Positions 8,511 to 20,000 of a stretch of 20,000 bases of DNA are shown one piece after another. Made by a program: the position numbers and the translations under genes. How positions within the stretch are numbered: the first letter of the stretch is position 1; each line of letters starts with the position of its first letter. The notes beneath the pieces are model-generated. The model ran no database searches. It had not been told where the DNA came from and saw only the letters and a program-made list of their open reading frames with translations. Origin of the DNA: an uncultured virus (IMG/VR IMGVR_UViG_2927790845_000001). Its lineage: Duplodnaviria; Heunggongvirae; Uroviricota; Caudoviricetes. The stretch spans positions 56,359 to 76,358 of the IMG/VR virus record IMGVR_UViG_2927790845_000001. One strand, given 5' to 3'.

Positions 8511-8541
8511 AAAAAAGCACATCCATTTTTGAATGTGCTTT
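8511..8541 (-). terminator. intrinsic terminator-like hairpin (minus strand) just upstream of xkdN
   Basis: Minus strand reads AAAGCACATTC-AAAAAT-GGATGTGCTTT-TTT: an inverted repeat followed by a U-tract. Confidence 0.6.
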
Positions 8542-8561
8542 CCAATCTTTTCATGTATAAT
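8530..8561 (+). promoter_or_regulatory. putative sigma-A promoter of the type I toxin mRNA
   Basis: Perfect TATAAT at 8556-8561, about 70 nt upstream of the toxin ATG. The -35 element is weak or not obvious. Confidence 0.55.
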
Positions 8562-14758: not shown

Positions 14759-16216
14759 TTATTTCTCCAGCTGGTTTGACTCGGATGGAGACAGCCCATT
14801 AGCTGTTTTTATGCGGCTTTCTAAAGGTCGGTGGTAGAATTCTTCCGGCCATTCCTCTAACGTCTTACCAAGAATACGCCCCGCAAGATCTCGTAAATCA
14901 TTTGGCGATACTGCCCCAGCCTGAATAAATGGTGTTAGAACCTTCGCTATCTCTAATGGATCTCTAAAGTCAGGACCATTTAATAGAAAGCGGACATGCC
15001 ATATATCTAAATCCGGGAGAAAAAGAGTATTGAGTTTCCCTGCAATAAGATGCCGCTCTGGCTGAAACACTTGCTCCTCCGTTGTTTTTCGCGCGGTATC
15101 TGCTGTAGCCTTGTTATAATCTTGTGACTCTCCTGTGTAAATAGGCGGCAGACGAAAAGCGGAGCGGATTTTGTTTCTCGTCTTTTCATCGTATTCTAAA
15201 AAGAGCGCATCCTCTTGCAGGATTTCCGCCAAGGATTTAAAATTCACTTTGACATTTGATACATCTTCTTCACCTGTTAATCCTTTTTCTGTCGGAAGCC
15301 CTTCTACTTCGAGCAATAAAAACTTATGCGCATGATCAGACCCTTCAATATCATCCATATAATCTTGTAGCTGCTGATAAGAAGTCTCTGACAGCATGCC
15401 GTTTTCAACAATGATGGCACCAGGTACATGCCTTCCTTGCTTAAAATAAAGATAATTCAGCTCTTCTGCTTTTCGTGCGCCATACATATTGACGATGTTG
15501 CCAATCCAGCGGGGAATCCCATACGTCCCACTGCCAATTTTAAAATGAATGACTTCTGTTGCTTGAAGTGGTTCTGGTGTAGCATCATCGTACTTGCCTG
15601 TTTCATAATTTAATATGCGCGGATCACCATACTCCTTGAAAAAGACTTTCTTCTCATTGATGACCTGCACATATTTTCGGAATCGTTTCTTGCGATTCAT
15701 CGTCTTTAATTCGCCGTTTTCTGTGTAGTGGAATTCGACGTCGACTGGCTCACTCAACTTGCAAATGCGAATATGGAGTGCATCCAAATACTCGATTCCT
15801 GCCGGCTTTCCTTGTCCATCCCGCAGCACCTCTAAAAAGCCATTTCCTGTTTTCTCCCGGTCTTCTAGGACATAACCAAGAATCACGTCAGCAGACTCAT
15901 CATAGTTCATGTATTTCGTAAACTCTTCGAGTCTTGTCCATTCCTTCTCGGCTGTCTTCTTTTTGACCGGTTTCACATCTTCCGCATTAAAATCAAAGGC
16001 GTATTCCACCCCAAAGCCAAAGCCTAAAATGTTTGTTCGATACGCATCTATACATTGCTGAAGAATCGTTGAGTATTCTGCCATGCTTTTTAATTCATTG
16101 ATATGGTAGGGCGGCGGGACAATGTCATCTTTTTCGTATGAAAATTCATCCTCATACATTTGTTTTGTATGATCAGACATGTTGGCCTTCATAATCGTTG
16201 CTTTTAATTGTTTCAT
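14759..16216 (-). CDS. xkdE: phage portal protein XkdE
   Basis: 485 aa directly after the terminase large subunit; motifs [22 protein letters not shown] and IRSAFRLPP. Confidence 0.93.
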
Positions 16217-17526
16217 TGTATGGACCTCCTCTCTCGGTTTGGACGGACACGCTCTGAAGCAGTCTGTTTCAAATCGGTCACCTCATAATCATCTAGCGCA
16301 TACCAAATGGCGGATAATGTGTGTGGATCGATTTGAAATTCATCTTCTTCTAAGCGGCCGTTCTTATCTGCCTTATAGGTTAGTGATTGAAGTTCATAGA
16401 TGGTATAAGGGCAAGCATCAGAACAAATGATTTTCTTAAATCGTTTGATTTTCTTTGTATATTGCAAACGTGACCCTTGGAACTTATGCGCAGCGACCAT
16501 TTGAAATCCGCGCTGCCGAAAATAGTGAATCGTTTTAGGCTCTGCTGCGTCTGCCTTAATGAGTTCCTTTGATTCAACAAATTCTTTCAAATCAACAGCT
16601 GTTTCATCATCTGTTTTCCCGCGGTCGTAATATTCCCAATAAATATATAAGTACTTTTTTTCATGATCGACAGCTAACCGAATGAGCGCATTGTAGGATT
16701 CGACAAATCCAAAATCCATCCCCGCTCGTTTCAGCGGTCTTTCAATCTGCCCGATCGCATCTAATACGTCAGCATGCTGTCTGACCTCAAATTGCGGAAA
16801 CACTTTTGTGCCATTGATACCGAAGTATCCCTTTCTTGCAATTCGATAAAGATCTGGATCGTATTCTTTCAGCTCATCCAGCTGCTTGACATAGCTTCTA
16901 GGAAGAAATAGATTGTCTTCTGCTGTTGAGTGGTGATAGTACGTATCTTTTATCACGATGGTTCGCTGTTTGTATAAGGTTTCGTCATCAAGGACAAATC
17001 GTTTCAGCTGTTCATCTCTAAAGAAATGTCTGTACGTCCAATTATCCTGACCAACGGGATTCGTCGATAACATCATATAAAGAGGTAAAACCGGATGTCT
17101 CAGCCTTCCAAGCAGTTCTTTAAACCCTTCATATGAAACCTCGGAACACTCCTCAATCCAAATAATTGAGATGTTGTTGATCGACTTCAATTTCTCAGGC
17201 TTGTCCAGTCCTTTAAATAAAATGCTGCTCCCATTGCGAAAAGTGAGAGCAAGCGGTGAACTGCGGCACTTTACTAGATGATCAATGCCAAGATCGCTGA
17301 CGATTTCTTGTAAAAGAGAGTAGGTCGACTCCCGGTGCGTATCATACACTTCTCGAATGACAAGTGCTGTTCGTTTTTCCTCAAGCAGTTTTAAAATCAG
17401 CTTTAAAGCAATGTGATAGCTTTTGGAGGAGCCATAACCGCCTACTAAAAACTGAAACTTTTGATTCCAATCGAACAAAAAGTGTTCAAAATGAGGATTG
17501 ACTTCTTTTTCAATCAACGGCGTCAT
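16213..17526 (-). CDS. xtmB: terminase large subunit XtmB
   Basis: Walker A-like GGYGSSKS, Walker B IIWIEE, STNP coupling motif, nuclease motifs GMDFGF and [12 protein letters not shown]. Confidence 0.96.
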
Positions 17527-18170
17527 GAATCGTCCTCTTTTCTTTTGATCATGATATGAAGATCTTCTTCTTTTTCCTCACGAACTGCTTTTTTTGTTTT
17601 TTCGATTGTCAGCTCAATTTGCTTCAGCCTTAATCTTCGTTCATCTTTCGCATGAGCGAGCTCTTCAAACTGTTTAATCAGCCGTCTTAGTTCTCCCATT
17701 GCACGAGATTGGGCATTTAAAAAAGTAGCATGCCGATCCCATGAAAATTGAAACGAAAATTCCTCTGCCGTGATCTCTGGCTCTGGATGAATGCCTTCGC
17801 CTGTTTCTTCCTCTAATGAAGAAGGCAAGTACGTCGCCTTTTTCAGTTCTTTGATCATGTCATCTTGATCTGCTACATGCATGATGCGCTGCGCTCGAAT
17901 AATGGCTGCGTATTGAATTTGAATTTGATCCCAGATGATATCAAGAGATGTGCGCCCATCCATTTTTTCCATGATTTCAATCGTTTCATCTGAAAGAAAT
18001 TGGTGAAAGATCGAGTGCGCCTGCTTTGACGGTGTTTTTTGTCTTTGCCAGCCGTATCGTCTTTTCCATGATTTAACGGTATGGATGGAGACGTTGTAAT
18101 GATCGGCTAGTTGCTGGTACGTCATCCCTTTCATATAATCCTGCTTAGCCTCTATCCGTTTATCTTTCAT
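17523..18170 (-). CDS. xtmA: terminase small subunit XtmA
   Basis: N-terminal HTH ([30 protein letters not shown]); conserved [16 protein letters not shown] and [15 protein letters not shown]. Confidence 0.9.
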
Positions 18171-18254
18171 TTACATTCACCTGCCGCCTCCTTTTAGTTC
18201 GAATGATTCCCTGAAGAGAAATCATTTGTGCCGGGCTAGCAAACATTCGTTTGG

Positions 18255-18300
18255 TCTTTCTAACTATAGGTGGCAACTGTAAGACAAGCTTTTGAAGATT
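18255..18300 (-). promoter_or_regulatory. probable Xpf-dependent late promoter region
   Basis: Lies between the xpf terminator and xtmA. Minus strand reads TCTTACAGTTGCCACCTATAGT. Position is inferred from PBSX organisation; the exact elements are not verified. Confidence 0.45.
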
Positions 18301-18310
18301 GATGTGATGA

Positions 18311-18348
18311 AAGAAAAAACGCCTATTCAGCAGCTCTGAATAGACGTT
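18311..18348 (-). terminator. intrinsic terminator overlapping the end of xpf
   Basis: Minus strand AACGTCTATTCAG-agctg-CTGAATAGGCGTT then TTTTCTTT (13-bp stem). Confidence 0.8.
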
Positions 18349-18841
18349 CTTGTACTTTTTTGGACATTTTGGTCCGAGCTCTTTCCATATGTTTTTGGAC
18401 TGTTCCTTTTTTTACATCTAGCATGATCGCAATCTCGCTAAATGACAGACCCTGTGTTGTGTGCATAAAAAACACGTCTTTCTCTCGATCTGTTAAAACA
18501 GACAAAGCTTCATCGATTCGCTTTTTATCCCGCTCACTTACCTCTCTTTCTTTCTCTTGAATGAGGGTGTATTCATGTGATAAAGCCTCTAATACCTCTT
18601 GATTAGCAAGAATGGTTCGCTGATACACAGACCGTCTATCTAATCCTCTGCGTGCGCCTGGCTCTCTACCGATTTGAAGCCATTCCACCACGTATTCTAA
18701 ATCACTGACCATACTGGCGATCATTTTTTGATCATGTTTGTCCTGATCTGACATCTGTTTCTCTTCTTTGTCTTTCAATTGTTCATATCGTTTTCTGGCA
18801 TCTTTTAAACTTCTTTTATATTCAATCAGTAAATCTTGCAT
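18323..18841 (-). CDS. xpf: sigma factor-like positive control factor Xpf (Pcf)
   Basis: MQDLLIEYKRSLK; WLQIGREPGARRGLDRRSVYQR; C-terminal sigma region 4 HTH (LSFSEIAIMLDVKKGTVQKHMERARTK); upstream of the terminase. Confidence 0.93.
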   Translation of the reverse strand: MQDLLIEYKRSLKDARKRYEQLKDKEEKQMSDQDKHDQKMIASMVSDLEYVVEWLQIGREPGARRGLDRRSVYQRTILANQEVLEALSHEYTLIQEKEREVSERDKKRIDEALSVLTDREKDVFFMHTTQGLSFSEIAIMLDVKKGTVQKHMERARTKMSKKVQERLFRAAE

Positions 18842-18869
18842 CTATGCTCTCTCCCTTTTTTAAGAAAAT

Positions 18870-18920
18870 AAAAAACGGACACCAATCAGCCCCTTTTTAT
18901 AGGGTCTTGATCAGTGTCCG
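18870..18920 (-). terminator. intrinsic terminator between xtrA and xpf
   Basis: Minus strand CGGACACTGATCA...TGATTGGTGTCCG (13 bp including G-U pairs), with an inner CCCT/AGGG stem, followed by TTTTTT. Confidence 0.82.
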
Positions 18921-18965
18921 CAGGCTTTCCGTCTTGGACTTATTCAGTTGTTCTTGTTCATCAGA

Positions 18966-19172
18966 CTAGCTGATTTTAAAACCAATCTCATGATCGACTC
19001 TTGCAAAATGTCCTTTTGCTGTTTGAATAATCGTTTTTCCATGCTCAGGTACATCCATCATATAAGCCGTTCCTACGTTTCCATCTAACACAATGACTTG
19101 AATCTTTCCTTTTTCCATTTCACCGACAAATGTCTGGTTTTCTTGAATCATGAGTTGTTTTGGCTCGTTCAT
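18966..19172 (-). CDS. xtrA: XtrA/YqaO family protein
   Basis: 68 aa; GKIQVIVLDG...PEHGKTIIQTAKGHFARV; directly upstream of xpf as in PBSX. Confidence 0.88.
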   Translation of the reverse strand: MNEPKQLMIQENQTFVGEMEKGKIQVIVLDGNVGTAYMMDVPEHGKTIIQTAKGHFARVDHEIGFKIS

Positions 19173-19573
19173 ATGCTTGTCTCCTTATTTGGTGGTGAGG
19201 ATCTCATATCATCACCCATCGTATTTAAAATGATTTCCATTCGAGGACGCATGCTATAAAACTGTGAAACTCTTAATTCTACAATCTGTAAAGAGGCGTC
19301 ATCGGTAACGGCATGAAGTGCTTCTTGTATATACTGCAAATTTGGTTGAAGAATGCTGATGTGTACCGGGCGTATCAAGCCTTTTTCAGCAGATGTACGC
19401 GTGTCTTGGCTGTTCGCTAGATCAATGGGCATATTGTAAAATGAGCGAATGTCGAGTGATAATGCGCCTTTTATTTTGCTTGTGCATTGCGCTTTAGCGG
19501 CTGTTTGAATTCTGTTTATCAATGTCTCTTTTGTGCATAAATGTTCTTTTTCAATGATAAAATGAAGGACCAT
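19169..19573 (-). CDS. RusA-like (YqaN-like) protein, catalytic motif apparently lost; occupies the xkdD position
   Basis: Start ATG 19573 after GGGAG. IKGALSLDIRSF..MP..AEKGLIRPV...QIVELRVSQFYS.RPRMEIIL follows the Firmicute phage RusA pattern. Confidence 0.7.
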   Translation of the reverse strand: MVLHFIIEKEHLCTKETLINRIQTAAKAQCTSKIKGALSLDIRSFYNMPIDLANSQDTRTSAEKGLIRPVHISILQPNLQYIQEALHAVTDDASLQIVELRVSQFYSMRPRMEIILNTMGDDMRSSPPNKETSI

Positions 19574-19574
19574 G

Positions 19575-19679
19575 CTACGATCTCCCGTCATCCTTCGCCC
19601 ACTGCCGAATGTCTTGTTCGTTTTGACCCGCATTGAGCAAACATTTCAGGAATGTCATGATTTGCTTCAATCGATTCAT
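19575..19679 (-). CDS. small phage protein, 34 aa (YqdA-like)
   Basis: MNRLKQIMTFLKCLLNAGQNEQDIRQWAKDDGRS. ATGA overlap with the upstream stop, AAAGGA upstream, and its stop lies 1 nt before the next ATG. Below the ORF-track cutoff. Confidence 0.65.
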   Translation of the reverse strand: MNRLKQIMTFLKCLLNAGQNEQDIRQWAKDDGRS

Positions 19680-19873
19680 GTCGCATTCATCCTTTCCTTC
19701 TTCTTGTCATCAACGGCTTTTTCTGCCATGAGGGTCATGTATGTGCGTTTTTCTTCTGCCGTGGGGAAAGCAAAAATCGGCTCTTTTTGATGAAAAGTGA
19801 TCCAGCCGCCAGCTTGTACTAGGCAATGCTGGGCTTCTTTTCGGGCATCAAATGTCATCTGATGTCTCATCAT
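19676..19873 (-). CDS. hypothetical phage protein (about 65 aa)
   Basis: ORF-track ORF 19676..19879. AAAGGA at 19881-19886 favours ATG 19873. Overlaps both neighbours in operon fashion. Confidence 0.65.
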   Translation of the reverse strand: MMRHQMTFDARKEAQHCLVQAGGWITFHQKEPIFAFPTAEEKRTYMTLMAEKAVDDKKKERMNAT

Positions 19874-20000
19874 CATCAAATCCTTTCTCGCGGTCCTCGT
19901 CCTCTAATCGATAACCATTTCGGGACATTTCATATGGCCAGTAACGTTTTGGATAGCCGAAATCATTCATTTGTGTCACCATCGGATGTTCGATATTCAT
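19848..20000 (-). CDS. hypothetical small phage protein (at least 50 aa; may begin at or beyond the window edge)
   Basis: Open from ATG 20000: MNIEHPMVTQMNDFGYPKRYWPYEMSRNGYRLEDEDREKGFDDDETSDDI*. The RBS cannot be seen. Confidence 0.55.
   Translation of the reverse strand: MNIEHPMVTQMNDFGYPKRYWPYEMSRNGYRLEDEDREKGFDDDETSDDI

Follow-up and report, generated by a model that had tools for sequence, protein, structure and literature searches.

A conserved attenuator-like RNA element precedes late-activator genes in Bacillus phages and PBSX-type prophages, with XtrA as a candidate regulator

Between xtrA and the late-activator gene xpf, the window analysed here (20,000 nucleotides of an uncultured Caudoviricetes virus record) carries one member of a widespread family of ~80-nt elements. 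These elements are built from a 23-24 nt 5′ hairpin (helices P1 and P2) whose 3′ strand is also the foot of a terminator with a sequence-invariant lower stem. The family is apparently a real, undescribed attenuator gating the genes of late transcription activators. That the attenuation is regulated in some manner is, in our judgement, probable. As the most specific reading, we propose a cis-acting attenuator of the late-activator gene with XtrA as the most likely holder of the 5′ hairpin, to which we give somewhat less than an even chance.

At the right end of the window lies the junction between the early and late regions of a defective prophage of the PBSX type. Over the length of our query, this junction is 100% identical to the defective phage PBP180 of Bacillus pumilus, in whose record xtrA stands as ‘hypothetical protein ORF5’, followed by a ‘positive control sigma-like factor’, with nothing annotated between them. 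On the minus strand, the order runs from a RusA-like gene through xtrA, a 26-nt spacer, a 24-nt motif, a long hairpin, a U-tract, a ribosome-binding site and xpf to a terminator and the genes of the small and large terminase. The last gene before the element is xtrA (18966..19172; 68 aa; PF17356, E 9.4e-22), and xpf (18323..18841, with its ATG at 18841) encodes a sigma-like positive control factor of the late operon of 172 aa. Xpf matches Sigma70_r4_2 (E 9.5e-14) and the sigma factor family phrog_1190 (E 8.7e-55), and its region 4 match together with the position of its gene before terS and terL identifies it as an Xpf-type late sigma factor. The small terminase gene (17523..18170, minus strand; Terminase_5/HTH_23) opens the late operon. 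The earlier note, made from the letters of the window, had described xpf as closed by a terminator of its own, and a simple terminator scan recovered it at 18351-18315 (minus strand; 16 pairs, then a T run).

Downstream of xtrA, the spacer (18940..18965), which is variable among 12 B. pumilus-group loci and ends in a semi-conserved A-U-A-[ACU], leads into the 5′ hairpin, a putative antiterminator (18916..18939, from the minimum free energy (MFE) fold of the nascent RNA). The latter overlaps the terminator hairpin (18876..18920), in which an invariant lower stem (CGGACACUGAUCA/UGAUUGGUGUCCG) with a tandem G.U is topped by a variable apical stem. The U-tract (18865..18875; TTTTTTATTTT, that is UUUUUUAUUUU), conserved in homologue alignments A1 and A7, lies directly 3′ of this G+C-rich stem, giving the architecture of an intrinsic terminator in the 51 and 39 aligned homologues. 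The xpf ribosome-binding site GGGAGAG (18849..18855) follows, 7 nt before the ATG. A terminator between xtrA and this site had been claimed before, with coordinates that are all correct on the minus strand (hairpin and U-tract together span 18920-18865 in our analysis); the simple terminator scanner missed the 18920-18876 hairpin because of its internal loop. The 156-nt region folds at -42.2 kcal/mol, with the hairpin present in both the MFE and the centroid structure, a stability z of -3.18 and none of 200 shuffles as stable.

A consensus scan of the minus strand from 18990 to 18841 for sigma-70-like promoters returned no promoter-like site, in agreement with the earlier view that there is no room for a promoter before xpf. 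Sigma-54, ECF-like and LexA box readings of the leader, made by eye against consensus sequences, gave no convincing match. Two further features lie beside the element. A 9-bp hairpin spans the xtrA stop codon (18962-18989, minus strand) in both the MFE and centroid folds. The spacer of the B. pumilus group (window 18940-18965; loci L005-L008 and L048-L056) is rich in A and C and poor in G, contains CA(T)CA repeats that vary in length, and may be unstructured or rut-like.

The 24-nt motif GUCCAAGACGGAAAGCCUGCGGAC (18939-18916, minus strand) contains two short helices. P1 pairs GUCC (18939-18936) with GGAC (18919-18916), the same GGAC that forms the foot of the terminator, while P2 pairs CGG (18931-18929) with CC-G (18924, 18923 and 18921) around an AAAG loop, the two helices being separated by an AAGA/C internal loop. 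The P1 pairing had been pointed out in the earlier note with a GGAAA ‘loop’, in place of which we find the small inner helix P2 with an ARAG loop. On the nascent RNA, the GUCC:GGAC pairing is the MFE structure (-4.2 to -5.7 kcal/mol) until the 3′ arm of the terminator has been made. In the complete RNA, the terminator fold reaches -30.6 kcal/mol versus -18.6 kcal/mol with P1 forced, so that the terminator is favoured by 12 kcal/mol; if P1 were held, what is left of the stem would stop 5 nt short of the U-tract. Among 82 unique homologues, 71 have an MFE structure in which the upstream strand pairs with the foot, versus 110 of 1640 shuffles. The GUCC:GGAC alternative fold is real, and its mutual exclusivity with the terminator, as originally proposed, holds both in the nascent MFE and in a two-helix hairpin conserved in two divergent versions with compensatory changes. 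By folding and by these cross-type changes, the region has one of the defining features of an attenuator, a conserved alternative structure that is mutually exclusive with the terminator.

The motif AAGATTGGAAAGC is present at 8537-8549, with an equal match in 15 of 200 shuffles, and the covariance model finds no element there; the ‘similar’ motif at 8541 is chance, as the earlier note had suspected. The tandem U.G/G.U of the lower stem (ACUGA/UUGGU; window 18876-18920, alignments A1 and A7) is almost never ‘repaired’ to Watson-Crick pairs. From phages of the B. subtilis group to those of the B. cereus group, neither lower-stem arm changes in sequence, in contrast to the drifting apical stem. 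Structure by itself does not account for this constancy of the lower stem.

The element is far from confined to the window. Downstream of xtrA in 12 species of the B. pumilus group, the 24-mer, lower stem and U-tract are constant, and the spacer and apical stem vary. A search allowing up to three mismatches found the 24-mer in 50 of 91 Bacillaceae genomes, at 140 sites in total and one to seven per genome, with none for the reversed control; this recurrence is far beyond chance. The 24-mer is identical between xtrA and xpf in the PBSX of the B. subtilis group, where the proteins are 44% (XtrA) and 46% (Xpf) identical to those of the window. In genome G042, whose coordinates and sequences are those of B. 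subtilis 168, copies lie at 1,265,401, at 1,324,372 (xtrA-xpf) and at 2,691,511 (skin). Phage phi105 also has the element; there, a homologue of XtrA is encoded 5 kb upstream, and a small basic ORF and a DUF1492-type activator lie downstream. In B. tequilensis, a second locus has the element before an xpf homologue that lacks an adjacent xtrA, the nearest XtrA match being ~1.8 kb upstream. No family in Rfam 15 matches the element, the only matches in the fetched loci being two tRNAs elsewhere, and the 106-nt region has no Rfam match at E<=10, hence no RAT consensus RNA. A PyrR site, suggested by a resemblance to UCCAGAGAGG, was discarded, as the PyrR model has no match at E<=10.

Several variants and neighbours of the element were seen along the way. 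The provirus record of the window contains, outside the window, a second divergent copy (51 bits; variant GUCCAGAAGGAAGAACCUGCGGAC; G000:C1:30225-30324, minus strand; L083), ~5 kb downstream of a second xtrA homologue. The subclass of this copy, which also occurs in L067, L068, L070, L076-L078 and L103, is marked by a ~40-nt box (..ATGATAGAGACAAG..AACGAACGTGAATAT..) that is conserved upstream of the element and by a long, likewise conserved and apparently structured stretch (GGGAGACGC.CCTTTCCCTTATCAA..) on its downstream side, and has no Rfam match. In another subgroup (L029, L046, L066, L071, L074 and L081), a conserved box CGCAACTATCTGGATGTCTATCGCGATTAC lies 30-60 nt after the U-tract and before a small basic ORF. 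Some phage contigs of the B. cereus group hold two to five same-strand copies, sometimes of both hairpin types (L213, with copies at 2683, 5713, 7437 and 8752; L238, at 4464, 7682 and 8886; L233, L254, L259, L231 and L300); such contigs would fit one trans-acting factor serving several terminators.

The second hairpin version was found in XtrA-bearing genomes without the exact motif. The Type I hairpin of the B. subtilis and B. pumilus groups is invariant, and covariation is therefore uninformative for it either way. Type II, from B. cereus-group phages, reads GUUCU-A-CCAG-NNNN-CUGG-A-GGAC and continues into the same lower stem as Type I. Across 39 Type II sequences, 97.4% of the hairpin cells are paired, versus 44-53% with slid partners. 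The earlier note had suggested looking for covariation among homologous leaders, and it is present in Type II: three of the four P2 pairs and 5 of the 13 terminator-stem pairs show compensatory changes, P1 showing wobble variation only, without compensatory change. Over the whole family, P2 occurs as CGG:CCG, GGG:CCC, CCG:CGG and CUGG:CCAG, and a P1 variant, GCCU:GGGC, is accompanied by the matching change in the 3′ arm. At locus L078, P1 is broken and the terminator is kept.

These patterns bear on whether the conserved sequence acts as DNA, namely as a protein-binding site or as a promoter for the late activator. It is true that what the motif and the lower stem conserve is sequence and not structure. 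Against this stand the strict orientation of the element, which is that of the gene following it (of the model matches, 97 of 99 and 74 of 75 lie on the gene strand, the remainder being reverse echoes of the hairpin), the conserved U-tracts, where 3′ ends map in vivo in the paralogues listed by Mandell 2021, and a covariation of the RNA type, including G.U pairs. In addition, the covariance model finds no similar sequence before the late operon of the window. We give a DNA site very little credence.

In 35 loci examined, the first sizeable same-strand gene downstream is usually a late transcription activator, exceptions without a visible activator including L021, L054, L070, L075, L076, L077 and L078. 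These activators belong to three families, the Xpf-type sigma factors (phrog_1190), Sigma70_r4-like proteins (phrog_1058/36) and DUF1492/ArpU-like proteins (phrog_248), and terminase genes then follow. The genes upstream of the element are mutually unrelated in these 35 loci, and it is therefore the activator gene, and not the 3′ flank of xtrA, to which the element belongs. The earlier claim that the terminator gates xpf is supported; the accompanying picture of a feature of the xtrA 3′ flank gives way to an element that tracks the late-regulator gene, at 0-7.8 kb from xtrA. Translational coupling to the xtrA stop codon was rejected too: the spacer length ranges between ~4 and 36 nt, and an upstream ORF is missing from many copies.

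Between element and activator there is often a very basic ORF of 40-60 aa (phrog_3928/20406). It represents a family of 40-90 aa proteins in PHROGs of unknown function, without a Pfam match, that shares the motif ..R[DE]L..LMG......R.(K/R)GGA..K and accompanies most non-PBSX copies of both types (for example L071:3130-3261, L079:3090-3212, L097:1584-1772, L103:5895-6062 and L501:6004-6273). Its product is a possible feedback partner of the switch. Separately, the yjcO-type activator of B. subtilis (L071:3487-3948) has matches to Phage_antitermQ (E 0.0075) and to phrog_79, ‘Q-like’ (E 0.001), both below the family cut-off and probably due to the shared HTH region.

No protein family is linked to the element as tightly as XtrA, whichever of the two is taken as the starting point of the search. 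All 50 motif-positive genomes encode XtrA; at 95 of the 140 genomic sites, an XtrA lies on the same strand no more than 10 kb upstream (adjacent at 49 of them), and 93 of 145 XtrA matches have the motif within 10 kb downstream. In IMG/VR, loci selected by XtrA have the element downstream on the same strand in 80 of 80 cases for the cereus type and in 74 of 80 for the subtilis type, that is 154 of 160 together, and the six misses have at most 2.9 kb of downstream sequence. Loci selected by the element give the converse. A 14-mer pattern for Type II returned 78 loci, of which a model search dropped 50 as chance matches; XtrA lies upstream in 27 of the 28 true ones, the remaining locus having only 229 nt available. 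For Type I, XtrA lies upstream at 67 of 78 unique sites, and 10 of the 11 misses have less than 8 kb available. When the ORFs of the mosaic Type II loci were clustered, XtrA was the sole family present in all (24 of 24), followed by the large terminase in 13 of 24 and two activator families in 10 each. In the more uniform Type I loci, XtrA is found in 38 of 40 and the next families in 36 and 34; shared ancestry explains part of the linkage there, because other families are nearly as frequent. The link to xtrA homologues proposed in the earlier note thus stands as an association of the two, with the reservation that 45 of the 140 sites have no XtrA within 10 kb upstream. Intact-looking xtrA genes without an element occur at L092 and L093 (genome G010) and L098 (genome G070), where non-phage genes follow directly; these loci look like prophage remnants cut just after xtrA.

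The pairing of hairpin types with XtrA clades is less clear. Type II hairpins accompany clade B 88 times and clade A never, and Type I accompanies clade A 110 times and clade B 16 times, part of these 16 being regex noise by eye. B-clade XtrA does stand beside canonical Type I hairpins in B. subtilis-group prophages (L390, L403, L417 and L458). Genome G010 and contig L209 hold both hairpin types, each behind the matching XtrA. Judged from these sequence associations, hairpin type appears not to be strictly tied to XtrA clade, and the specificity test is ambiguous. The features shared by both hairpin types, P1 and the invariant 5′ arm GGACACUGA, could be recognisable for both XtrA clades.

XtrA itself offers few clues. 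The window protein scores 77 bits against PF17356 (PBSX_XtrA; cut-off 29.7) and belongs to phrog_1551, of unknown function; no function is given in the annotation sources or the literature searched. Its AF2 model is all-beta (pLDDT 76), and by residue count it is slightly acidic. Sixteen XtrA homologues compared with Pfam match only PF17356 plus noise, with no CAT, PRD, ANTAR or HutP domain, and Pfam likewise finds no CAT/PRD protein among the six window ORFs in 16213-19879. A fold search of the PDB with Foldseek gave no match at E<=1e-3, a wide VIA search reached a best Z of 3.9, and a sequence search of the PDB gave 0 matches. The nearest non-XtrA cluster in the ESM Atlas is DUF3954 (0.77), a lead only. 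A CsrA-like role, to which GGA motifs of the RNA and a string resembling DAP[KE]H in XtrA had pointed, was set aside at an hhalign probability of 1.9%. We nevertheless regard XtrA as a candidate trans-acting factor, and tentatively predict that it binds the RNA.

Two paralogues of the element terminate transcription in vivo in B. subtilis. Among the rows of supplementary files 1, 3 and 6 of the Term-seq study of Mandell 2021 that match our search terms, two listed terminators have hairpins identical to those of L071 and L073. At yjcN+96 (the yjcN-yjcO copy), %T is 95.6 in the wild type, 44.9 upon NusA depletion and 93.8 in delta-nusG, and at yqaO+1178 (the skin copy) the values are 75, 92 and 92.3; yjcO mRNA rises by log2 3.7 upon NusA depletion, according to the same supplements. 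The PBSX copy is unlisted in these rows because xtrA and xpf have only ~25 counts. Read densities computed from the baseMeans in those files are ~0.40 for xpf/xtrA and ~0.02 for yjcO/yjcN, from few reads and with many caveats, a weak hint at higher read-through where the early operon is active. At the B. subtilis PBSX locus (L072:2300-4300), two raw-read RNA runs have 0 reads, and two contig runs span the stretch unbroken.

Values such as these could also come from an unregulated, leaky terminator that insulates the activator gene with a fixed low read-through, the 5′ hairpin tuning efficiency or RNA stability and XtrA having an unrelated early function. Termination at the listed paralogues is 75-96% rather than 100%, by which some activator could always be made; the 12 kcal/mol advantage of the terminator fold and the absence of a nucleic-acid-binding signature in XtrA point the same way. 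Tuning does not explain, however, why the 5′ hairpin and the lower-stem arms, including the tandem G.U, are invariant while the apical stem drifts, why the architecture is kept across two sequence types, or why co-occurrence with XtrA is exclusive in the mosaic Type II set. We consider a constitutive leak improbable. A smaller chance still falls to the element being mainly the 3′ end of a small or 3′UTR-derived RNA whose conserved single-stranded 5′ part acts in trans. By eye, several copies have an AT-rich region with -10-like hexamers ending a few nt before the motif, and the skin copy yields a mapped 3′ end though its upstream gene is on the other strand. A pattern search of both strands matched only the elements themselves, however, with no second complementary site; the PBSX-type motif lies inside an operon transcript, and the conserved part folds on itself with covariation.

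If the attenuator is regulated, the factor need not be XtrA. The same switch might be operated by a conserved component of the host, such as RNA polymerase, NusA or a different RNA-binding protein, by the small basic protein or by the activator in feedback, an option that we regard as unlikely, with an appreciable chance of being right. The 24-nt hairpin and lower stem are identical where XtrA proteins are only 44% identical, and hairpin type follows host group more than XtrA clade. NusA depletion shifts termination at both B. subtilis paralogues in the Mandell 2021 rows, in opposite directions, the small basic ORF follows the element in both types, and the sites lacking a nearby XtrA amount to 45 of 140. 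On the other hand, the presence of both hairpin types in G010 and L209 is less easily explained by a single host factor, PBSX-type copies lack the small basic ORF, the late activators belong to three different families, and no other protein family equals the 24 of 24 of XtrA.

Taken as a switch held by XtrA, the element would work as follows. By default, polymerase coming from the early operon that ends in xtrA would stop at the hairpin and U-tract, and little xpf would be expressed. The 24-nt hairpin would form first on the nascent RNA, with its 3′ strand GGAC being the terminator foot. Were this hairpin, or the invariant 5′ arm, to be held, the remaining stem would stand 5 nt from the U-tract and termination would fail; read-through would then allow Xpf to be made and the operon from terminase to lysis to be turned on. 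XtrA, the most likely holder, would accumulate from transcripts that terminate here and act on later ones, and since it would be made from terminating transcripts, a delay between early and late expression would ensue. Regulated read-through and XtrA as its factor are what we infer from the anatomy and the linkage, and the direction of the XtrA effect, anti-termination and not enhanced termination, follows from the logic of this arrangement. More speculatively, XtrA (PF17356/phrog_1551) might found a new family of small phage RNA-binding antiterminators that would recognise the invariant 5′ arm and the hairpin of a terminator reserved for the late-activator gene and located before it. Together with the element, XtrA would then time the passage from early to late expression generally in temperate Bacillus phages (phi105-like and of the B. 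cereus group) and PBSX-type tailocins.

It is through the Xpf and Ltr activators that a prophage or tailocin becomes committed to making particles and lysing its host, and the literature searched holds no description of how their synthesis is timed in Bacillus phages. Our analysis defines a conserved, easily mutated RNA element and proposes a concrete, testable role for the XtrA family, in model systems that include PBSX, skin and phi105 in B. subtilis 168. If true, the RNA-binding antiterminators, a short list, would gain a phage-borne class, and Bacillus engineering a compact, tight off-switch part. Cross-talk between prophages that reside in one host could likewise be explained: the elements of PBSX, skin and the yjcN-yjcO remnant are sequence-identical in the leader, and therefore the induction of one prophage could activate the late activators of the others.

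The genes gated by the element belong to known families, the Ltr superfamily (RinA, ArpU and LtrA/B/C) and Xpf. In the portions covered of Quiles-Puchalt 2013 and of the PBP180-like description, the Ltr/Xpf activators are needed for the late operon to be transcribed; Quiles-Puchalt 2013 describes, in the same portions, a terminator downstream of ltr and the terS promoter, with no attenuator upstream of the activator, and the term ‘antitermination’ has 0 occurrences in the covered text of both Ltr-related papers. The supplements of Mandell 2021 list the two paralogues with %T and NusA/NusG dependence, and their matching rows make no mention of a shared 5′ motif, of paralogy or of a position before late activators. 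A 2015 entropy screen has the window upstream of yqaQ as a riboswitch candidate at rank 41, without analysis, and the word ‘phage’ is absent from the covered text of a 2025 review of RNA-binding antiterminators. Neither the element nor a function of XtrA is described in the literature searched; the hairpin may be described in McDonnell et al. 1994 (PBSX xpf), which lies outside this coverage. The principle of a protein-clamped antiterminator overlapping a terminator is known from RAT/LicT, and the element family, the phage setting and the candidate protein are what we did not find in that literature.

In lambda, read-through of terminators before late-regulator and late genes, through N/nut and Q/tR′, controls the transition from early to late expression. 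The element resembles this system in placing terminators before late activators, and some copies appear to have a promoter of their own that would give a short terminated RNA, as pR′-tR′ does. It differs in that each terminator has its own adjacent hairpin, with no boxA/boxB-like elements seen, and in that no arginine-rich N-like or Q-like protein was identified, the Phage_antitermQ matches of the yjcO type lying below the cut-off. Compared with the RAT/terminator switches of the BglG family (LicT, SacY, SacT and GlcT), which act in sugar metabolism rather than in the timing of phage late genes, the element has no likeness to the RAT sequence and XtrA has none of the CAT, PRD, ANTAR or HutP domains. 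The design is nonetheless alike, a short, weak 5′ hairpin sharing nucleotides with the 5′ arm of the terminator, and so is the logic of the CAT-domain systems: termination would be the default, and a protein clamping the hairpin would give read-through.
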